The notes under the pieces are model-generated. The model was given only the letters and a program-made list of their open reading frames with translations, was not told the DNA's origin and made no database searches. Below are positions 2,491 to 61,182 of a stretch of DNA of 64,000 nucleotides, in pieces. The translations under genes were made by a program, and so were the position numbers. This DNA comes from Camelus ferus (lineage: Eukaryota), in the NCBI RefSeq assembly GCF_009834535.1, contig NC_045696.1, positions 15,068,001 through 15,132,000 on the forward strand, written 5' to 3'. The first letter of the stretch is position 1. The number at the start of each line of letters is the position of its first letter.

Positions 2491-4516
2491 ATATTTTGCT
2501 TGTCTGACAGACTTTTGAGATTTCATTGATGGATAACACTTACACCCTGGCTCATAATAATCATTTAACACATTTAAACTATTTTTATTGTATTCATATG
2601 TCAGGTTCCTGTTTGCTAGAATTATCATCCAGATTCTTCTTCTTCAATATATAGATAGTTGAAGCTATGAATAGTTCTCCCGGGCTTTTCTTAGCTCTTG
2701 CTTCCTGAGAATGAGCTGCCACATTTAGAGCAATGACTAAATAAAGAGTTCATGTTTCTCTCAGTAAAATCAGTTTATTCGTATCTTCCACAGACCATCT
2801 TATGGCCTGTTTGCTTTCATTCTATAAAGAAAATGTTAACTTTTGCTTAAAATCTGTTCATTTCTATTAGTGTTTATTATTATTTATACATGTTTATTTA
2901 TTTATGTCTGCTTGTTTGTGCCTCTTGTTGAATTGAGTGAATTACCTGAATGGCTGTTTCTGCATGGTTCATGTAGGTGATAATACACTTTGAATAAATT
3001 TAGAAGCAGAAAGTAAGTCATACTCAGTCTTGCAGAGCAAAGGACAAGTTATAGTTCTGCAAGTTAGAAACCCTTTGGCACAGATAGATAATTTACCAAA
3101 GGGGGAAAAAAAAGTTCACATTTTTCTTGGATGGCTCAGAAAATATATATTTTGAAGTTCTGAGTTGCCGCTTTCGTATAAATTTAGACCTACATGAAAA
3201 ATGTACATTTCATTTGGGACAATCTAATTTGTGAACATATAAAATGATATTTAACAATTTTCTCCCTTATTGCTGCAACTCACTTAGAAAAGAAAACTAT
3301 CTTGTTTCTCCAAGAAAAATATTTTCTTCAAGAAAGATTTAACAAAAATGCTGTAGGATGGCAGCATTTTTATGTAATGTGTGAACTCTACGTGTTTTGT
3401 AAGCTCAGATGTTTATGGTGTGGTAAGAATGTTAAACCACAATTCATAAAATGGAAGAGCTAATGGAAAATCTCACTTATATTTCTGAAACCAGCCAACT
3501 GTTTAGACTTACATATTTCAATTCATAAGTCATAACCCAGCATCACATAATTCTGTACATTGCACATATTTTCAGTGGAAAAAAATGTGAGCATCTTCCC
3601 TCATAGAACTTATTCAAAATTAAAAACAAGGCATAATGTGTAATTTTTCTATTGGAAATGTAACAATCACACCATACTTGAACTTTATTTCAATGATAAT
3701 GGTATATTTACTACTCTTAGAATGGATAACAATGGACATCTGGAAGCTCTTTTCCCAATATGATATTAAATAAAAGAAAGTTTTATATGCACAGAAAAAA
3801 TAAACCTGAAATCTTAAAGCATTAATGATACTTTGCTCTAATGAAGAAGATCATGAGATGTTACCTTATAATTTATATATTTTAGCATTTTTAAGTCTTT
3901 TTAACTTGAACTTATGTTACTTTAGAAATTGGGGTAGCAGAGGATGCAATGTTACTCTTTCTAAAATGTATTTTATTCTCTCATATCATCTCAGACTATG
4001 TGCACATAAGGATATAAACCTAACATTTGAGAGTATGTAGTTGTCTCTCACTATGTGAAAGAAAGTCAATCCATCAACAAAGAACTTTCAGTCAAGCCAG
4101 ATGTGATCAAAGGCAAAATCTCTGCTAAGGACTGATGAAAAGTGTTTAAATTTAAAGAACTGATGACATGTACACTACTTAATCATCTTTTAAGGAAACT
4201 GTAATACATTTTCAATCAAAACTTCCTAGGTCTTGATTCAATGCCTTTCTTATTAGAATGTCTTAAGAGCCTACATGAACTCATTAACTTTAGTTGTTTG
4301 CTTGTCACATATCAATTCAGCTATTATCTCAGCTAAAGTTACAATAGTGTGGAACTAATTACCTGATATTAATTTCTTGCTTACATGTTAGCAGGTAAGC
4401 TCCAGAAATATTTTCCTCCTCTTTACTTTCTTTGTTTTGAAATTGGAAGTCTGCTTGCTTTTCTGAATGAAACCAGTAAGAGTGGTTGGAAGCTCCAAAA
4501 GGAGTGGATGCTTTTT

Positions 4517-10759: not shown

Positions 10760-11700
10760 CACTTGTTTTTTCTCACCCAAATTGAGATTTTCCTGGTTTT
10801 TCACATGCTGAGTAATTTTGGATTGTATTATAGACAATAGAGATTTGAATAGCATCCAGTTTCTCATCAGAAAATATAGAGACCCAAAGGAAATAGAACA
10901 GTATATATTTAAGTGCCAGAAGAAAAGATTGCCAACCCAGAATTTTATATCCAGTGAACATACTATTAAGGAATGAAGGATAAGCAAAGATATATCCATA
11001 TAAAGAAAAACTCAGAAAATTAATAGTAGATATTCACTAAAAGAATTATTAAAGGAACTTGTTTAGACAGAGTGTAATTTTATCAGAGGGAAATGTGGAA
11101 CATCAGTAATGAAAGCAGAGCAACAGCAATGATACTGAATAAAAGTTACAGACTATTATCTTCTTGATTTTTTAAAATGTGTTTGACAATGAAGGAAATT
11201 TATGACATTGTTGATGAGATTTTCATCATATGCAGATGTAATATATACGACAATTCAAAACAGAAATAGCAGGGTAAAGGATCTTCAGTGCTGGTAAGCC
11301 TTCTGCATTCCACTTGAAATGGCAAAGTATTCATTGTAATTGAGCATCAAAAGTTAAATATGTATATTATAACCCTAGAGCAAGCACTAAAAACTACAGA
11401 AAGAGAGATGTAGTTAAAAACACAATGATAAATTAAATCGAATGGGGAAGAAAAGTTCAAACGACACTTTAAAAAAAGAAAAAAGAAATAACAGAGGGAA
11501 CAAGCAGAAAACAAATAATAAATTGCAGCTTTAAATTCAAACATTTTAATTATACTAAATATAAATGGTTAAATATATCAATTGAAAGATAGGTGTCTGA
11601 TGGAAAATGATACGTCATATATATGCAAACAATAATCAAAAGAAAGCTGGATTAGCTGTTTATATCCAGCAAAGCAAACTTCAAAGCAAAGAAAATTGCC
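10760..11700 (+). mobile_element. Old L1M fragment (ORF1 3' end, inter-ORF region, ORF2 start) with an inverted 5' piece at 10760-10838
   Basis: ttctcatcagaaaatatagag...caacccagaattttatatccag is the ORF1 end. atgcaaacaataatcaaaagaaagctggattagct is the ORF2 endonuclease start. 10760-10838 is reverse L1 5'-region sequence. Confidence 0.85.
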
Positions 11701-11959: not shown

Positions 11960-12330
11960 TTTTAAATTTTTGAGCCAACATTAGATTATGTTATCTGAAA
12001 CTTGTCTTTATCGCTTAATAATATATTGTGGATATACCTTCAATTCAACTGCTATAGGTGTAATTAATTATTTTTAAATGGCTTTACACTGTGTTTGACA
12101 GTGAAGGAAATTTATGACATTGTGGATGACACTGTGAATGCACTGTAATTTGTTCCACTTTTCTCTTACAATGAGTGAACATTTATTTTATTTCTTTCTT
12201 TTCCATTATGAACAATATTGTAATAAATATTCTTGCACATTTGTCCTCTCAGAGTTACTCTAATTCCTATAAGGTAGATTCTGAGGGATACAATTTTGAG
12301 TATGTAGAGGTAACTTAAAAAATATTTTTA
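11960..12330 (-). mobile_element. L1ME-like 3' fragment
   Basis: cttaataatatattgtggatatacc...ttccattatgaacaatattgtaataaatattcttgcacat matches the reverse L1M 3' end. Confidence 0.65.
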
Positions 12331-30134: not shown

Positions 30135-30165
30135 AAAAAAAGAAAGAAGAAAAGAAAGAAAGAAA

Positions 30166-30198
<33 letters not shown>

Positions 30199-30323
30199 AG
30201 AAAGAAAGAAAGAGAAGAAAGAAAGAAGAAAGAAAGAAAGAAGAAAGAAAGAAAGAAAGAAGAAGAAAGAAGAAAGAAAGAAAGAAAAAAGAAAGAAGAG
30301 AAAGAAAGAAAGAAAGAAAGAAA

Positions 30324-30367
<44 letters not shown>

Positions 30368-30370
30368 AAA
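30135..30370. repeat. Compound (GAAA)n/(GAA)n polypurine tract
   Basis: About 236 nt containing only A and G on the + strand. It is the source of the spurious F/L/S ORFs. Confidence 0.98.
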
Positions 30371-42877: not shown

Positions 42878-43385
42878 TGTTAGAGTTTGTCAGAGAAATG
42901 GAACAAACAGAAAGCATATAAATATATATAAGGAGATTTATAATAAAGTAACATTATGTGATTTTGGAGGCTGAGAGTTCCCACAGTCTGCTACCTGCAA
43001 GCTGGAGGCCCAGGAAAGCTGGTGGTGATACTGTAGTCCGAACTCTAAGGCTGGAGAACCAGGAGAAATGATATCAAAGTCTTAGTCCAAGTCCAAGTGC
43101 CCAAGAACCAGAAGTGCTGATGTCAAAGGAGAAAATGGATGCCCCAGTTCAACTGGAAAGAGTTAATTCACCCTTCCTCTACCTTTTGTTCTATTTAGGC
43201 CCTCAGTGGGTCAGATTATTCCCACCCACACTTGTCAAGGTGACCTTCTTTATTCAGTTTATGGATTGAAATGCTGATCTCTTTCAGAAACATCCTCACA
43301 GACACACCCATAAATAACACTTTACCAGCTATCTGGGCATCCCTTAGCCCAGTCAAGTCAAGTTGACATGTTAAAAACCATCACA
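42878..43385 (-). mobile_element. MLT2B-family 5' LTR of the ERV-L provirus
   Basis: tggaggctgagagttcccacagtctgc...gcaagctggaggcccaggaaagctggtgg...catcctcacagacacaccc...cccagtcaagtc..gttgaca...ccatcaca. Confidence 0.92.
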
Positions 43386-45301
43386 TCTTCAATTAAAATT
43401 TTGGTGATAACCTTTTGCAAGTATGAAATAGTAACATCAACATCTACTTAATGGATAATTGTTAAGTTATTAACTTCATAAAATCTTTTAAAACTACTTT
43501 TTACAAAGCTTCTCAGTTTTATTTTTGCCCTCCAATCTTATCTGCCATTGAAAAACTTATTTCATTCCTAGAAGTACTAATATCATCAAATGTACACAAA
43601 GCATCCAATAAACAAGCAATCTTGGCTATTGTTGAATATCTTTTAAAAGTTGGAACCAAACTAGTTTCTCATTTTACTAAAATACTGTTTTTTTAAAGTA
43701 ATTAAAACATTTAACACAATTTTTCTTCTCCACAACCATCATGCTTCTTTGTGCAACAATGTGCTTTATAATCAGCTTCCATATTATCACCTTGATAAAG
43801 AAAATAATCTCAAATTCAATTGTTTAGCATTTACTGAATTCACAAATGTTACTGTGTGGTTAAGCACTCTGTTTATTTAAGCTGACATTTTGTGCAGAGC
43901 AAGATTTTTTGATAAACAAAGCAGCGTGTTGATCTTCATTTTGGTGCAAGCTCAGCGCCATAATCTGAGAAACTATTCCAGAATGTTTTCTGTCATAAAT
44001 ATTGTGCTATCAGAACATACTACTACACAAAGCTTAATCTCCAAACTACATTGGTTAACCATGCATAGTTTTATACAGTTCAGACCTAGTCATTTTAAGT
44101 CAATGATGATGAAAAAAATTCCACCCATCAACATTAGGTTGAAAATGCAATATGTAGTATAATTATCATGTAAGCAGTATCTGGGCATTAGTCTAGTTTC
44201 AATTAAAAACACTCTGCTAGATTTAATTACTCTGAGTTGGTCTCCTGTATCATCACTCAGTTCCTGAATACCCAGTATCATTGGAAAGTGGTATTTGATT
44301 GACCTCATACCACAGATTCTTCCAAGCAAACATTTTTTCCAAACAAATATCTTTAACACTATATAAAGAGCCAGCAATTGTATGTATGTTTCATTTAGTC
44401 TCAGCAACCCAAAATGTTGTTTTATAAGAAGCCCACATAGCACCAATATTTATATGTGAAATGTTGAACATCTGTTTCTGTCAGTTTTTTAATGCAATAG
44501 TGTTTTTTTTTACAAAGCAGTCTTGGTTTTGAACATATTTATTTACATGTTTTATGTAAATATCACTTAAGTTGTGATGCTTTTATCCCTTAATTATCTG
44601 ACATATCTCCATAAATAAAACACTGTGGTTTTAGCATATTACCATCAATTATGATTTTAAAATGATTGCAACATATTAGGAATTGTATTTCTGAGTAAAA
44701 TGAGTATGAACTCTTGGTTTTCAGCTCTTCATAATGACTTCCATCACCATCATTTGGTCTATAACTACTGTAGCATTCATAGAATATGTATCTCCTCTTA
44801 GCAAGTCCAGTGCAGTAAATTCTCCTTATATGTTTCACTTAAAATAATGCAAATTGAATTTCCTTGTGATAATATTGTTAAACTATAACTGAAAAGCAGT
44901 TATCAATAAACAAGTGCACAGTTCTAAAAATAAATTATAAAAACTTACAAAGTTTACGTTTTGTAATTTTACAGTTACAAAATTGTACACACACTTAAGT
45001 TACAGTGTACAAACTAGCTTTAAAATGCCACATGTTGCAATGTGGTCCTATTACATGTGACTAACATGTTTATACCATATTTGACTCACAACACCCTAAC
45101 TGTTTTATACGCTGGCCAGAGACATCTCACTGATTAGAAACTTGGATGGCTTGGCAATGTCAAATTGTTGCAGACATTTTGAATGTTTGTCCATACATCA
45201 GTGCTTAGCCTCACCTCAGTGCTTATCCTCATCTTCCCTCAAACTGGTAGCAAAGAGTTCCCACTGCTCCAGTCCACAGGATCACACTTTGAGTACCCAA
45301 G
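43386..45301 (-). mobile_element. Charlie2-like hAT transposon, 5' end and decayed transposase
   Basis: Terminus (minus strand) gtactcaaagtgtgatcc. Reverse translation across frameshifts gives IDGNMLKPQCFI (BED finger), QIPLSNDT..IQELSDD..DQL, KHSGIVSQI..STRCF, LNLRLFSL..DNMEADYK..LLH. Confidence 0.88.
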
Positions 45302-46693: not shown

Positions 46694-46745
46694 TTCATTG
46701 AGTTATTGAGTTTTCAACTTTCATTTGAGTTATTGAGTTTTCAAC
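46694..46745. repeat. Tandem duplication, 27-bp period
   Basis: ttgagttattgagttttcaac at 46698-46718 and 46725-46745. Confidence 0.9.
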
Positions 46746-48012: not shown

Positions 48013-48138
48013 ATGCTTTTTATCAAGGTAAATAAATAAATAAAGTAATGCAGTGTAGAGTAACAGAGTTTCTTCCATATACCTCCTTTCACACGGAAGT
48101 AGGTACCTAAACTGACATACTTGAGATTTTTTTCTGGG

Positions 48139-48520
48139 TGTGATGGTTTATTTTATTTGTCAACTTGACAAGGCTATGGTACCAGTCTAGATGTTGCTGT
48201 GAGTGTTATGTTTTTAGAGGTGATTAACATTTAAGTCTGTAATCTTTGAGTAGATTACCCTTCATAATGTGAGTGGGCCTCATTTATTCAGTGGAAGCTT
48301 TAAAAGAAAAGACTGAGGTCCCCTGAGAGACTGTAACATCATTTCTTCCTTGGGTCTTCAGCCTACTGGCCTAGCTTGCAGATTTCAGATTTGCCAACAC
48401 CCACACCAAGAGAGCCAATTCCTTAAAATAATTGTTAAGACTAAATATAAATTCCTTAATGCATACACACACACACATTCCTATATCCTATGGTTTTTCA
48501 GGAGAATCCTGACTAATATA
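48139..48520 (+). mobile_element. MLT2D-like solo LTR
   Basis: tgtgatgg...gtcaacttgac...gattacccttcataatgtgagtgggcctc...ggagaatcctgactaatata. Exact 5-bp TSD ctggg at 48134-48138 and 48521-48525. Confidence 0.92.
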
Positions 48521-51159: not shown

Positions 51160-51930
51160 AGAAATTTTTTATTCAATAAATATTTATTGGCAGCCTCATA
51201 TGTGGCAAGCCCTTACAGCAGAAAGCAGACAAAATTCTTTGCTTCTTTTGTTCCAGAAACAGGAGTGTAATAGTTAAACTTCTATGTCCATTTGTCTGGG
51301 CCAAATTGCCCAAATATTTGGTGAGACACTCTAGATGTTTCTGTAAGGGTGTTTTTGGATAAGATTAACATTTAAATCAGTGGATTTTGAGTAAAACAGA
51401 TTGCCCTCCATAATGTGCGTGGATTTCATCTAATCAGTTGAAGGCCTTAATAAACAAAAATAAAATTCCCCCTGGCAAGACAAAATTCTGTCCACACATA
51501 GTCTTTGGGCTTGAACTGCAACATCAAGTCTTTCCTGTATCTCCAGCTTATGGGCTTATCCTGCAAATTTTGGACTTTCCAGCCTCCATAATCACATAAA
51601 CCAGTTTCCTAAAATCTCTCTTTCTCTCTTTCTCTCTCTCTCTCAATATGGCCCTCTCAATAATTAGGAAATAAATAAGAAAATATTTGTTACATAATGA
51701 TCAATTTTGTGGATTGAAATCAAGAAGGAATAGGAATGGGGTTTTCCAAGAATTGGGATTTCAATTTCAAACACAGGGTGAAGAGTGAATAACATTTGAG
51801 TAAAGATGTAAAGGAAAAGATGGAGTAAGTTCTGCAGACAGTAAGAGGGTCCTAGGCAGAGGAAAAGCAAGTTGAAAGACCCCGAGATGGGAGTGAGCCT
51901 GGTATGCTCGAGAAAGAGTGACCACATGCT
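51160..51930 (-). mobile_element. L2 3' region, interrupted by MLT2
   Basis: attcaataaatatttattgg at about 51171. It resumes with gaataacatttgagtaaaga...ctaggcagaggaaaagcaag...gaccccgagatgggagtgagcctgg. Confidence 0.75.
51266..51655 (+). mobile_element. MLT2C/D-like LTR
   Basis: tgtaatagttaa...gatgtttctgtaagggtgtttttggataagattaacattt...gattgccctccataatgtg...cagcctccataatcac...(CT)n. Confidence 0.9.
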
Positions 51931-52537: not shown

Positions 52538-53926
52538 GGAAAAGAGTAGCAGAGACAACAATTAGACAGCATCACAATAATCAAGACAGGAGATTATGGA
52601 AAATTTTTAGAAATAAGGAAGGGTCAGGGCTGAAACAGTTTTGATGGTCTCAAGGTCTACATGGTCATGAGGCCAGGAGCAATAGAAGGTGGAGATCTCC
52701 CCAGGAACCCACAGAGTTCTGGGGCCCTCTTTCTACTGGACACTTGGAGGCTGAAACAAGGATGGTATTTATATTTTCTGTTTTTTTCTGACAGGAAGCT
52801 TCTTGGGGCCTCCCTCACCCTTCTCCAACAAAACTTTTAGCTTTTGGAATTCATTGCTGGTCCCCAGTGCATTTAGAGGGATTCACACAGTGCCTTTTAC
52901 ATGGTGAATTCTCAGTAAGTATCAGTGATCATTACTGCCTTCAAGTCATCAAATGGTTATACTCAGGCTTCTCTTTCTAAGAAATTTATTACTGGATCAG
53001 CTTCCATAGAAAAAATCATATTTTTGTTTCTCTTTACATTGAAAACATTAAAACTTTTAAATGATTGAGGAGCTAGGTTATGTTAAGGTCAAAGTTTTGG
53101 AGCCAATGAAATTGAGTTTGGAGTCACAAGGCTACAGCCTTTTATGGCTGGACAATCTTGGAGGACTCACTTATTTCCTTTGCCTATTTTATTATCTGTC
53201 ACAGGGTTCTTTTGAGGTAAAGGAAACATCATTTACAAGACTGGTTCATTGTAGGCTCCTAATTAATGCAATTTTCTTTTTTCTCTGAGATCAAGTGAGG
53301 AGAGACACTGCAGATGGCCTCTGGAGGCTCATTTCCTCCACTCCTTTAATAGGACTCAGAGTTGGCTCAGTGGAGCTGAGGCCTCAGTAGACAAAAAGGA
53401 CTGATTCCAGCAGCTGAAGTTCCTCTTTCTAATAAAGCAACTTTCCCATCTAGGAAGCTTCCCTTTGATACACAATCTGCTAAGGTCCCCTGTCCCCCAG
53501 TCCTTTTGGACTCGGAGACTTAGGGGGTCAAGCTCCCTCTAACAGACTTTTCCCTGGAATGTTTGGTCCAGTTGTGCCCTAATAACATGTGGGATGTTGC
53601 AATCAGTAACTGTGTGATCTTGGTGTATCTCTGCTCATATGTTTTTTTCTAAATAAGCTCATTGTGATACTAATTACATGACTCTAGTATCTTCTATGTG
53701 TGCATGAAGCTCTATGTGCTATTCTTGCCTCTTTGCACAATGTACTTCACCATTTCTTCTATTACTGCGATGACTATTGCTTCTATGCATTTTCAGCTAA
53801 TTAGCCAGCATAGAGTGCACCTTCTTTTCTTGAAAATTTAAGCTAATTTTATTTAAATAACAGATAAGTGAATATATTCTCCCTGTAAACTTACTAAATT
53901 TTTTCAGTTAATGTCCACTATCTAAA

Positions 53927-54636
53927 TTTTAAAATAAACTTTATTTCTTAGAGCAGTTTTAGGTTCACAGCAAAATTGAGTGGAAAGCACAGAGAAATCC
54001 TATATCTCCCTGTCCCCACACATGCACAGCCTTCCCCACTATCAACATCCTACAACACAGTGGTGTATTTGTCACAGTTGATGAACCTACATTGACACAT
54101 TATCACCCAAAGTCCATAGTTTACAATAGGGTTCACTCTCGGTGTACATCCTATGAGTTTGGATAAATGTGAAATGACATGTCCACCACATGTACAGTAT
54201 CATACAGAACAGTTTCACTATCTTAAAAATTTCCTATGTTCCTCCTATTAATGTCTCCCTTTCCCTACATTTTTGGAAACTATTGCTCTTTTTACCGTCC
54301 TCATAATTTTACCTTTTCCAGAAAGTCATACAGTTGGAATCATATAGTATGTAACATTTTCAGACTTGACTGTTTTTACTTGGTAATATGCACGTAAGTT
54401 TTCTCCATGTCTTTCCATGGCCCAATAGCTCCTTTCTTTTTAGTGTTGAGTAATATTTCATTGCCTGGATGTACTGCAGTTTATTAGCCATTCACCTATG
54501 GGAAGACATTTTGGCTGGTTCCAAGTTTTGGCGATTATAAATAAAGCTGCTATAGACATTTGTGTGCAAGGTTTTGTGTGAACGTAAGTTTCAGTTCATT
54601 CAGGTAAATGACAAAGAACACAACTGTTAGATCACA
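53927..54636 (-). mobile_element. L1MC1-like 3' end
   Basis: ttagagcagttttaggttcacagcaaaattgagtggaaag...gttgatgaacctacattgacac. Degenerate TSD atctaaattt (53920) / atctatattt (54637). Confidence 0.92.
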
Positions 54637-54979
54637 ATCTATATTTCACTATTGGTTCAATAAAGGCTTAGTATTCTCTTAATTTTCTTACATACAGAAC
54701 TTTAATTTGGCTAAAACTCATTTGGTAATTACCCGAATCTTCTAATAAATAGTGACCTCATCAAATTATCGAACCAGAAATATACCATTATAGGATATTG
54801 CATATAACATTTATTTTATTTTGATTTTAGTTAACTTTTTGTAAAAAAGTATAATGAATTAAAGTGACATTTCATATACACGGTAGTGTGACTGGAAGGG
54901 AGATAAACACATGCACAACCAGTATTGCATGCCTCGTATTATCTAATTATTTTCATACAAAGGTAATTTAAAAGTTCAG

Positions 54980-55100
54980 TAGTCTGATTTCTCTTTTAGA
55001 AATGGAGACTCTTAGAGTCAGAACAGTTGAATAACTTGTCCAAGTGGAAACACTGCAATTCCATCTGTTTGACTCCGGGTCTATGCTCTTTCTAGGACAC
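54980..55100 (-). mobile_element. MIR fragment
   Basis: ttttagaaatggagactc...gttgaataacttgtccaag...ctgtttgactccgggtctatgctcttt. Confidence 0.65.
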
Positions 55101-55642
55101 AATTTGCACAATTATGAGGGAAGGAGATTTCTGCTTTATTAGTTTATCTCAGCTTATTTTCCAGAAAGAGCTTTTAAACTAATGCCCATGGGTCTATCCC
55201 ATCTGTGCGATTTTTCTCTGTGGAAGTTCAGGGTAGGGCTGCAAATGATTTCATAATACACAATTCCAGAATCTAAACCATATGGCTGTATTCTATGTTT
55301 GCACAAACAGATAGCTGGCTCCACACAACAGTAGCAGTACATGTGTAATTACATACTCACTCAGTTCTTACTGCAAGTGCCCTTGTCCCCCAGAAAGAAA
55401 ACCATAACAATGTAGTTGTTTAGAAATCATATGTGACAAACTGCTACATATTTTGCTAATAATATAAAGGAGGTAGAGTTAAAAATATAAAGTTTTCTTG
55501 GGAATTAAAAATTGTTTCAAATGCAAGATATATTCATAAGAATGAAATTTTACCAATGGTTTTACACAAATGAATAAATACAGCATGTTTAAAAATGTGT
55601 CCTTAGCTATACCCTGTAATTTATATTTTCTAAAATGCTCAG

Positions 55643-55692
55643 CCAGTTTCTCTACTGCTGCAGTAGCTAAATAGACTTCTTTAGGAAAAACA
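55643..55692 (+). repeat. Left arm of a perfect 50-bp inverted repeat
   Basis: ccagtttctctactgctgcagtagctaaatagacttctttaggaaaaaca is the exact reverse complement of 57900-57949. Confidence 0.97.
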
Positions 55693-57639
55693 AATGTGGC
55701 TACACTCTTTCAATTCATAATTTACTAGAGCAATTCATATTTAGAGTTGCTTGGATAAATAATCTCTAATGTCAGAAAAATGTGTTAAAATTTTTTCAGT
55801 TTTAGCTAAAGTACAGAACAAAGTTCTTCTAAGAAGAAGTAAAGGGAAATTTCAATACCCACAAGTGTACTTAGGAGAGGACTCCCTGGAAAAACCCAAC
55901 TCGTGGTATGACTCACTCAGTGAATGATGCTTAACTGACTTCACCTGCAAAAGAAAAATGATAATACCCAGCAGTGTCCATGATAAATCTAAATTACAGA
56001 GTAGCTGATTCTTCCAACAACATGACGTATTGTTTTTGAAATATCCTATTTAATGCCAGGGACAAGTCATGGATATGGGAACAGATGCTCTTAGCCAATG
56101 AAAAAGAAAAATCAACTTTTCTCTAAAATATTTTTGTGACAGTATGAAGTGTTATACTTTTGAGTCTATTGTGATGGAATAAAAAATTTATCCCATAGCT
56201 ATTTTAATGAAGACCAAACAGCAAACACTCATATCATTTAGCTTAAAAAGTTGGTATTTTCCAAGAACATAAGCAGAATAGTAATGGATTTGAATGCGTC
56301 TGAAACTTTTTTGCCCTTGATTGGATTTGTTTGCAGAAATTTTTGCATGTTCGGGTAATGAATGGGTGATAGATACATGAACATCACAACAAGAGTGTTT
56401 GTCTATTTCATAGTCAGGTTTTCTTGATAACTTAAATAATACAATACTGCTAACATCATAGTACCAAGTGTTTGAGTATTATGCCATTCAACACTGAAGT
56501 GAAAATAAATATTTGGAAATGAACTACTTTTTGGTTAAACCAAAGAGTAATTCTAAGAATTTTGCATTATTTCCTTGTGTGAGCATAAGAATATGTATGT
56601 TTATAAAAAGACCTTGTGTTTTAAATGGTCAAAACATTTTGAACAGTAATTTGATGACTTAATTGTAAAAGCTTCCAAAACATATGGATTGCATTTCCCA
56701 GTTCCATTACAATCTCACTGGGTTTTTAAGTAATAGGCAAAACCTCTTTTTAAAAAAGGCTCAGAACATGATGAAAAATAACTTGAGCATTTCGACAAAT
56801 TCCAAATTCAACAGGATTTGCCCCTCCCAAGTGTATAATTGACCTAAATCATAGGATTTCTGTACAAGACATTTTTTCTTTTTGTCACTCTGTTAAACAT
56901 CATCTATTAGGCATAATAACGCCCAGTAATTTTCTTCCCCCCTCTATTTTCTTTTGCATAACTGAATAGGGAGTTTAAGTGGAGAATGATATTCTAAAAA
57001 CACTTAAGAAATTGAAGAAGCTGACACCCAGCATTCAGTAGATTCAGCCAGTTAGATGTTTGTTTGCTTGGTTTAGTTTGTCTTTTTAATATCTATTAAA
57101 GGGAAAGAGGAACTAGATAAGAATTATGACTTATTTTTTACCCTCTAATCTTTGTTCCTGGATTTAGTCACATGAACTGGAAGTATTTTCATGAAGTACA
57201 ATTATGTAGAATTTAAATTTTAGATTCATGCTGTTTGAAATCATAATATTCAAAACTTGTTAGCTTTTACTTGATTTGCAAGGATAGTCCTTGGGATTCA
57301 AATCATAATCACCATATGATATTCTCTACAGTTAAGAACTTAAGAGTGACAAATCCACCCAAGTTACAAAAATTTTCCAGACTCACTTGATAACATGTTG
57401 AAAATAGGACTATTTTTCATAATTTTGTAAAAAATGTGTTTATTTTACTTTGAAGTTGAGAGATGAACAATTCTCCTTTATCTCCACAACGTTTTATAAG
57501 AGAAAACTGTCGTCTAGACACATAATATCCAACTTGCTGTGGTTTGCTTTCTGAAAGCTGAAACCAAAATCTTCTTACATTCCCTGTAATCTTTGGGATA
57601 CTCTCATTCTTCAATTTCCAACTTAATTTCTTGTCATCT

Positions 57640-57995
57640 TTAATTCATCACTTTTCTTTATTTCCCCATTTTCAATCAGATTTCAAGCTCTGTCCATTCC
57701 GTGTTCCAGATTTGAGGGTTGATTCCTCTTGTATGCCCTTTATTTTCACTCGAGTCTCATCACTTTATACCTATATTATCTTGTTCGAGTACCCCCCAAA
57801 TGTCATGATTTACTTCCATTTTAGCCTCTTTCCAAGAAGTTTCTCATTGCCTGAAATCTCATGTTTTACCTCTTCAATAATTTAAAGCATAGCAGCATAT
57901 GTTTTTCCTAAAGAAGTCTATTTAGCTACTGCAGCAGTAGAGAAACTGGATGAAAATAATCATCTTTTAAGGCCAAACTTATATCACTTATCATA
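57640..57995 (+). mobile_element. Degenerate L2 fragment surrounding the right inverted-repeat arm
   Basis: ccccattttcaatcagatttcaagctctgtccattc...cctcttcaataatttaaagcatagcag [arm] ...taatcatcttttaaggccaaacttatatcact follows L2 consensus order. Confidence 0.45.
57900..57949 (-). repeat. Right arm of the perfect 50-bp inverted repeat
   Basis: tgtttttcctaaagaagtctatttagctactgcagcagtagagaaactgg. Confidence 0.97.
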
Positions 57996-58955
57996 ATCCT
58001 AGTGATTAAGAGAAACAGGAATGAAATATGACATTTTGAAGACCTCAACACATTTTATTTATTTTATTCTCCTTCTTTAAATTTTAATATTATTCTGACT
58101 ATAATGAATATGCATTTTGAATTTGACATTCAATTTTGTTTTAATCTTTTTAGAACCTCAGCTGTATAATTTGACAAAGAATTCTGCCGTTTAGAATTTT
58201 TATTTTTACATACAAATTGAAATATATTAAGTAGTCTCTATATTAAGGATTTCAAAGTAAGTTTAAACATAACCCAACAAACTAAGGGTTTTAGCTGGCT
58301 GAGAACAGTGTGAAGTTGCTACTACCATCTGAGAAACGCTTTGCTTTTGGTCTGGCTGTATTATGATATCTTAAATCAAGGGTTAGTCAAAGGTACTAGT
58401 GGAATGTCTATTAATTGAATATTTAATTTGTAACATCTTAATTTAAAGAAAAAAGCAAACGAAAGGTTAGGTACAAAGTCCCTGGAATTTCTAAATTGTT
58501 GAGAAAGCCTGAAATGTTTTTACAAATGATTTCCTAGAGCTTTAGCAGCTGTGTAAAAATATTCTCTACTACTCTTCTAAAAGTTAGGACTCAGAACTCT
58601 AAAATTCAGTGCATGTATTGTCAGGAACACCATCTGCTGTATGTCCTTGAGCAACAGACTCAACTTTGGGTACACAGATTTCTAGGATTCTCTGATTATC
58701 GATTCAAAATTTCATTTTCTTTATTTCAAACTGGAAAACTATTGCACTGTTCCAAGTCACTCATAACATCATGGCAAGTTTATTCTTATTTATTTTTTAA
58801 GCAGAGGCATCAGTCAGTATGACAATAATCCCAGAAGAACAAGGCAAGCCTGGAACTCCACTTCACAACATCAGCAAAGACAGACTAGCAATGGCAGTTT
58901 TCATCTGCCAAATATGTTTTGAGATTCATTTTGTTTTGTTTTGTTTTGTTTACAG

Positions 58956-59007
58956 CGTCTCTGCAAGAACCTCCAGCAGACGATGGTGTGGTTTAATTAT
59001 TTAGACG
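58956..59007 (+). other. Candidate 52-nt spliced exon (host gene unidentified)
   Basis: Branch-like TTCAT at about 58925, a long (TTTTG)n tract, acceptor TTTACAG|C and donor ACG|GTAAGT. Three CpGs; one frame open (RLCKNLQQTMVWFNYLD). Confidence 0.5.
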
Positions 59008-60094
59008 GTAAGTTTCTTCTACCTCTAGATTCTTTGGTTCTCTAATCATGCCAAAATTCTTTGAAAAGCTATAGTAATGTGAAAGGACCAAACACACACA
59101 CACACTTTAAGAAATCAAGATATTTCAGAACACAAAACGTTAAAATAGGTTTTACATTATTGTGCACACACATATGTGTACATTCTCATGCCGAAAGGTC
59201 TCAGGGTCATACTGTAGTCCATGTGTGTAGTTGAACCTGTCTTGAAGTTTCATTACCTTGAAACATACTTTATTATAGAATAAAAGCTATAATCTGGATC
59301 ATCAGTGGAGCTGAATAGTAGATATGTCAAACTAAAATGCATCATCAAACGCATCTGATGCAGAAAGATGCTTGCTAATAGAAAGGAAGGTGGTACAACT
59401 TCTTTCCTTCTAGATCCTAATGAAAAATGTAAGATGTGCAGTAGTTTTGGAGGATTTATTGTAAGTTAATTAGAACATGTTAAGTAGAGATTAATAAATA
59501 GCTCAAAAGGATTTATAGTCACAACTCTGAGGCTAGCTGTGAATATTAAAGTGCAGCCACACCAGTCTCAAAGGAAATAGTAGCAGAAGGAATATAAGTT
59601 ATCACTGTGATGAAACAAAATAGTTGCAATTGCAGATGGATTATTAGCTAATATTGACTCTTGCTCTAAAAGCTGTCAGACCTTTGCTATGCAGCATTGA
59701 AACAGCTGGGAATGTTCTGTCAAGAAGCCACTGGGAGAGATGTTTTACTTGGGTTGAGATACAAAAGTTAGATATTTGCTAAGAACATAAGAGCCATATG
59801 TTTGCTCATGGGTCAGACAAAACCAAGTATCTTTTTTTTGGGGGGGGGTGTATTCTAAAATATGTGCTTATTTCACTCATCAAACATCAATTAAGAACTT
59901 CCAAAGTGACAAACCCTATAGGTTCTAACAGTTAAATAACATACCAATCCTGCTGTTATAGAAATTGAAATCCGGAAAACACTGAATTGATCATTTAAAG
60001 TTTTCTATAAGAATAGCAAAAAAAAAAAAAAAAAAGCCTCATTGGTTAAAGGAAACTAACTGATGTAAAAAGAGATCCTATTTCCATTTGTGTT

Positions 60095-60430
60095 TAGTCA
60101 TGCTGCCATTTATGAACTGAGGCCCCCTTTATTCTGTCGTTCTACCATCCCAGAGGTCCTCACCGCCATCAACAACTAGCCAGCAGGACAGAGTGGGATA
60201 AACTATGAAGAAGGCACACCCACATCTTGAAAGCCTTGGTCCCAAAGTGGCACACACGACGTCTACTTTCATTCAGCTGGGTGAAGACTAGTACAAATGG
60301 CTACTACAGGTTAAAGGCAGGGGGACTGGGAGATGTAGAGGCAGAAAAAGTAATAATTGGTTTGGCAGCTACCTTCCAGATATGACTTTATAGTATGAAT
60401 GAGCAGACCAGATATTGATGAACCACAGTA
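60095..60430 (-). mobile_element. MLT1J/K-like LTR fragment
   Basis: gaaggcacacccacatcttgaaagccttggtcccaaagtggcacacac...aaaggcagggggactgggagatgtag. Confidence 0.7.
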
Positions 60431-61182
60431 AGGACAAAACAGAAAACATCACTTATTAGCAAACCCATTACAGCTGGACCTTTAATTAATCATAAAATAT
60501 CAATAATAAAAGTGTTAGTTAAAAAACTTAAAAATTTTGATGTAAAAAATACTGTTAAGCGTTTCACATAGCAAATTACTTTTCCAGCCAGGTTTAGACT
60601 TAACAGAAAGAATATCTTCTTGGATAATATCTGTTTGCAAATTGGGTAATAGTTGCCTTCTTCAAGGGAAATTCCAGCACTAGAATAACTGTCTATTCAA
60701 GAAATGACTTTTGAAATGACATTGAATTATAGTGACATGAGTAGAGATCAAGCTATTATAAAAATATTTGCAATGTCAAACTCAATCTTTATTGTCACTT
60801 GAGAATGCCCTAATTTGTTGAAGACAAGAGTATGTTTAAAATCAAAAGTACTTGGTATTAGATATCTCTAGATTATCATAGATATCTATATTGTAATTCA
60901 GTGATTAAAAAAAAACTAAAACTGTAAGATAAAGTTTGTACAAAGGTTGGGAAGACTCTGTAATTCAGAAATCTAGAATTATGTCATAGTTGCCTTATTC
61001 CAAGTTCCCTGAAACCTAGATTAAACGTACCTCTTTGGCATCCCATCCTCTCTTTCAAACTTACACACCTGTTTGAATTACATTCATCTTCATAAATATA
61101 GCTAGCCAAACTCTCATAGAAGAATTTGAAGTCTACATGAAATGAAGGTGCATACAAGTAGCAAAATGAGTTAAATCTCTAT

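Follow-up and report, generated by a model that had tools for sequence, protein, structure and literature searches.

What generates an exact inverted repeat of 50 bp whose arms lie 2.2 kb apart? Such a repeat is present in a 64-kb stretch of the Camelus ferus genome, the whole of which was analysed and is called the window here. The left arm at 55643-55692 (plus strand) and the right arm at 57900-57949 (minus strand) are exact reverse complements of each other. The original prediction had reported this 50-bp match, its extension to 64 bp with four mismatches, and a short palindrome in each arm. All three were recovered, the exact match at the same coordinates.

Extent and significance of the repeat

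Without gaps, the repeat extends to 64 bp with 94% identity (55639-55702 / 57890-57953), and 2187 nt lie between the arms so defined. The four mismatches of this block are at 55642/57950, 55693/57899, 55697/57895, and 55698/57894. When one gap is allowed, the repeat is prolonged on its inner side to 77 nt with 88% identity (55639-55715 / 57879-57953). The palindrome CTACTGC-n-GCAGTAG is located at 55652-55666 in the left arm and at 57926-57940 in the right arm. Taken singly, the arms do not fold better than shuffled sequences (z = -0.31 and -1.13). The spacer, at 55716-57878, is AT-rich and showed no Pfam, Rfam, or tandem-repeat match.

The number of exact inverted matches of at least 50 bp expected by chance is about 9e-20 (about 1e-19 as a summary figure), and the second-longest non-simple exact inverted match of the 64 kb is 22 bp long. 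With up to three mismatches allowed, a 28-nt piece of the arm is found twice in the window and in none of 100 shuffles. There was no exact match of this piece among viral contigs, and neither 53000-61000 nor 55600-55760 had a look-alike in the other genomes scanned.

The inverted repeat is real. Both arms have unique flanks and contain no Ns, which argues against an assembly or polishing artefact in which one arm would be absent from the animal. In general, assembly errors rarely produce a reversed copy of 50 exact bases whose source is at a distance of 2.2 kb and whose edges are graded. An artefact is very unlikely here.

Age of the match and its probable origin

The four mismatches of the 64-nt block all fall within its outer 14 nt, and the core is exact. 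If four mismatches were placed at random, a run of at least 50 nt would be left with a probability of 5*C(14,4)/C(64,4), about 0.008 by hand calculation. The mismatches are therefore not explained by the even decay of a longer copy. Zero differences over 50 sites place the divergence of the arms below 5.8% at the 95% level. The old dispersed repeats of the same window, which we take to be L1 ends, are 73-83% identical in pairwise comparison. In simulated arms of 77 nt, an exact run of 50 nt appeared 0, 53, and 1873 times per 100,000 at 75%, 83%, and 90% identity, respectively. The rarity of such a run at the identities of old repeats suggests that the match between the arms is young, or has been kept young.

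The two edges of the arms differ in their statistics. The inner imperfect edge of the left arm, at 55693-55715 (+), is paired with 57879-57899 (-) and is a candidate microhomology. Its anchored score was reached by 32 of 1500 random flanks, which is above chance. After the first mismatch, seven of nine positions match, a level reached in 8 of 20,000 trials with a span picked after inspection. At the outer edge, 55639-55642 (+) shows one mismatch and then three matches to 57950-57953 (-). Here the anchored score was reached by 399 of 1500 random flanks and is not above chance.

It is probable that one template-switch event copied about 50 nt in reverse and left the spacer unflipped. In the course of replication or of the repair of a break, the growing 3' end would leave its template and anneal, by means of a short and imperfect homology, to the opposite strand some 2.2 kb away. 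About 50 nt would then be copied as the reverse complement before the strand returned to its own template. The outcome would be an inverted duplicate on either side of an unflipped spacer, a topology that the four-point model denotes as 3-2-1-4 or 1-4-3-2. We infer in this way a single event, its youth, the guidance of the switch by microhomology, and the orientation of the spacer. The original prediction had favoured a young inverted templated copy made through homologies at the edges. The copy itself is in agreement with the exact core, the clustering of mismatches at the edges, the inner edge above chance, and a class of the same size and spacing in the literature; against it, the similarity at the outer edge is at chance level.

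The literature class is that of small inverted duplications. In the 1000 Genomes map, 54% of the sequenced inversion sites are inverted duplications and 20% are simple inversions (PMC4617611). In the same map, nearly all inverted duplications are shorter than 1 kb and no more than 5 kb distant from the other copy, and they are not typically linked to retrotransposition (PMC4617611). The camel repeat is similar to them in that its reverse segment is 50 bp when exact and 64-77 bp with its edges, well under 1 kb, and in that the 2187 nt between its 64-nt arms are within about 5 kb. It also shows no marks of retrotransposition, and the duplications that bracket the arms are at chance level.

A long-read study describes inverted duplications as the commonest inversion class, with a median length of 284 bp and mostly 1-15 bp of microhomology at the junctions (PMC12350158). 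With about 50 bp, the camel segment is at the small end of the range, unlike a typical member with the human median. The putative camel junctions have the scores given above (32 and 399 of 1500 random flanks at the inner and outer edges). The inverted duplications in human maps are polymorphic, whereas the camel copy, known from one assembly, is fixed or unphased.

The repeat is also similar to the product of a four-point template switch (3-2-1-4 / 1-4-3-2), which is described as a reverse-complement copy of a nearby tract that forms a perfect inverted repeat with dissimilar or partly similar flanks (PMC5453318; PMC7954356). It is not a member of the short-range template-switch set, because the template is 2.2 kb away, whereas that set requires it within 100 nt (PMC7954356). 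Class 2 templated sequence insertions share with the camel repeat the lack of a long target-site duplication and of poly(A), and their junction microhomology has a candidate counterpart at the inner edge of the camel arms (PMC5110952). The donor differs: it is local (2.2 kb) and inverted here, but distant and often proposed to be RNA-mediated in class 2 (PMC5110952).

Most likely, the inverted repeat is an ordinary member of this class of small inverted duplications, known from human catalogues. If this reading is true, the locus adds one more small inverted duplication and matters little in itself. It would be a clean example with readable junctions at a distance of 2.2 kb, between the switches of less than 100 nt and the kb-scale inverted duplications, and it may be of use as a lineage marker.

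Presumed L2 context, insertion site, and transposon readings

The surroundings of the right arm, at 57560-58010 (+), may be a decayed L2 element. Read on the minus strand and with the arm included, the left site at 55560-55800 would correspond to the portion of L2 present at the right site, and its outer flank seems to carry on the presumed L2 that precedes the right arm. On this assumed likeness, the arm itself may be derived from a known repeat, which would weaken the statement of the original prediction that it belongs to no recognisable family. Probes of the 57560-58010 resemblance with nhmmer, Pfam, and ESM Atlas were blank, and nhmmer found no other copy of the region in the window.

The presumed L2 context bears on whether the spacer was turned. 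In an event of the same type, the switch would have copied the arm together with the whole 2.2-kb spacer in reverse (1-3-4-2 or 3-1-2-4), and the arms would be the duplicated ends of an inversion. As the arm and the left outer flank are both L2-like by our assumption, the order of the L2 parts does not tell against such an inversion, and the apparent continuity of the left outer flank with the element before the right arm speaks for it. Nor do the junctions separate a switch of the arm only from one that inverts the spacer, because both use the same two edge homologies and predict the same junctions. Among short-range human-chimp events, the spacer-inverting type accounts for 23% and the non-inverting type for 31% (PMC5453318). 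Against it, about 2.25 kb would have to be copied in reverse to invert the spacer, compared with 50 nt for the arm, and longer tracts are expected to be rarer. At the kb scale, inverted duplications (54%) are more frequent than simple inversions (20%) in the 1000 Genomes map cited above (PMC4617611), and base skews give no telling separation of the spacer from its flanks. Inversion of the spacer is rather unlikely.

Another reading dispenses with most of the insertion. In two old, weakly homologous inverted repeats, such as L2 fragments or decayed ends of a DNA transposon, a 50-bp tract could have been homogenised recently, either by ectopic gene conversion or by the correction of a quasi-palindrome, and little sequence would have been added overall. 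The gapped match that runs to 77 nt, the presumed L2-like words at both sites, and a direct match of six in eight positions just outside the boundary 55640/57952 would be consistent with it. The flanks, however, have no homology past the edges. Neither eight flank comparisons, nor four comparisons of flank against arm, nor two whole-site comparisons gave a convincing homology. In seven of the eight flank comparisons, at least 85 of 500 random partners scored as well; in the best one (outer, 300 nt), an AT-rich and gappy alignment, 24 and 9 of 500 did so. The whole-site comparisons are at chance level, the boundary match is also found at the rate of chance (see below), and there is no Pfam match. 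Homogenisation is improbable, and the single template switch that copied the arm is preferred.

Three further similarities were observed near the arms. The segment 55720-55760 has a weak ungapped likeness to the arm over 39 nt, a level that 59 and 53 of 1000 random partners attained; it is perhaps an old tandem copy or chance. A direct similarity of 20 nt (80%) is present between 57939-57958 and 58009-58028, 70 nt apart, and overlaps the outer end of the right arm. A direct match of 16 bp at 4180/57957 gave no clean alignment and was discarded.

For the preferred template switch, insertion can be read at either site. At the right site, the insertion would be 57902-57952, 51 nt long, with a 3-bp duplication (57899-57901 / 57950-57952, the second copy of which lies in the outer edge of the right arm) and no mismatches within the copied part. 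At the left site, it would be 55638-55696, 59 nt long, with a 5-bp duplication and two mismatches in 54 nt. Of 5000 random position pairs, 2740 did as well as the 3-bp duplication at the right arm, and 1038 as well as the 5-bp direct repeat that brackets the left arm at 55633-55637 / 55692-55696. Both being at chance, these target-site-like duplications were rejected as signs of direction. The 5-bp direct repeat keeps the left-site insertion alive as a reading. Insertion at the right site is the slightly better fit, and the two points in its favour are parsimony and the presumed L2 resemblance. The direction of copying was thus somewhat more probably from left to right, with the left arm as the probable template and the right arm as the probable inserted copy.

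The original prediction had held that there is no target-site duplication outside the arms and that the arms are unlikely to be the terminal inverted repeats of a transposon, and the present results agree with it on both points. Exact duplications outside the arms are not longer than 2 bp. The six-in-eight direct match at the boundary 55640/57952 (55632-55639 / 57953-57960) looks like a decayed 8-bp target duplication, but matches of this quality were found in 462 of 5000 random position pairs, which is the rate of chance. The ends of a DNA transposon or MITE were rejected on the grounds that no target-site duplication goes beyond chance and that the arms are far more alike than the old repeats of the window at 73-83%. 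A Pfam search of 55400-58300 in six frames, with stops as X, returned no families, and its power is low for decayed and frameshifted transposases.

Just before the right arm, 57562-57882 (+) is a stop-free frame of 107 codons. It is probably not a gene. The search of this 107-aa frame in ESM Atlas gave a best score of 0.83, no family, and a recognition value of 964, and it is uninformative.

An origin by the L1 machinery was also considered. Class 1 templated insertions are defined by a duplication of at least 5 bp and by a poly(A) tail with its signal (PMC5110952). Neither a poly(A) signal nor an A/T run of at least 7 nt is found near either arm, and for this reason L1-mediated insertion does not fit. 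Class 1 was rejected on the missing tail and signal, and the left arm has a duplication of 5 bp that does not go beyond chance, as stated above (1038 of 5000).

Possible RNA duplex and transcription, and other repeats of the window

The original prediction had noted that either strand, if transcribed, can form a 50-bp dsRNA stem. The duplex is indeed predicted to be very stable (-103.1 and -108.4 kcal/mol), as any such repeat would be, and it forms in the predicted minimum-energy fold of 2.35 kb. Such a stem could have been selected as a long-range duplex of a non-coding transcript; pairing of the arms would loop out 2.2 kb, and the stem would be a substrate of ADAR or take part in the control of splicing. 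Human chromosome 21 gene deserts are widely transcribed into lncRNAs, according to one report (10.1101/136275). By analogy, low-level transcription is conceivable here too, and the window may be transcribed at a low level.

The evidence of the locus itself tells against this duplex. The edge mismatches give G-U pairs in one of four cases on the plus strand and in none of four on the minus strand, which shows no bias. Rfam had no match across the 64 kb. No host gene and no convincing exon were found in the window, which appears to be intergenic. The spacer has one weak splice-site pair (rank 43 of 235), and it therefore offers no obvious segment for looping out or circularisation. A perfect 50-mer is a sign of copying rather than of slow selection.

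The arms are similar to PCCRs, which are described as at least 10 nt long and less than 10 kb apart, in that their predicted energy is far below the -15 kcal/mol given there and their length and distance are within these limits (PMC8052449). PCCRs, however, have a median length of 13 nt and lie in conserved intronic regions of one gene, and conservation is part of their definition, whereas the camel arms are known from the sequence of one genome (PMC8052449).

The original prediction had placed its best candidate exon about 1 kb downstream of the repeat. The candidate at 58956-59007 (+) is the best of five listed when an open frame is required, and ranks 10 of 235 when it is not. Its score of 12.9 was reached by 29 of 30 Markov-simulated windows in the scan with no frame requirement. 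As its splice score is at chance level, it was rejected as a sign of transcription. With the exon at chance, no G-U bias, and a window that is apparently intergenic, the proposal of a selected pre-mRNA duplex was not borne out, and a selected duplex is very improbable.

A composite of several readings was also weighed. Residual homology between two very old, oppositely oriented L2 fragments would have steered the switch, and the switch would have made in one step a perfect 50-bp stem in a non-coding transcript, which would then have been kept by selection and edited by ADAR. This is to be regarded as highly improbable. If the arms were conserved, transcribed, and edited, the locus would matter more, as a case in which a single mutational step gave rise to a long RNA duplex. 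Most likely, the inverted repeat has no function.

The segment 58956-59007 (+) deserves a description of its own. This AG...GT segment of 52 nt follows a (GTTTT)n run and is open in one frame. Its 52 nt contain three CpG, whereas the rate in the window is 0.005 per nt, a contrast that was noticed after the fact. It could be an lncRNA exon or chance.

Other repeats were observed elsewhere in the window. A direct repeat of about 56 nt, with copies at 11170-11225 and 12082-12137 that are 912 nt apart, has an exact core of 22 bp at 11190/12102 and is possibly another small local duplication. A dispersed repeat is present in three copies, one of them inverted, at 43104-43388, 48136-48429, and 51263-51615. 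An (AAAG)n array of about 61 copies occupies 30135-30369, and a near-perfect tandem duplication of 27 bp is located at 46694-46745.
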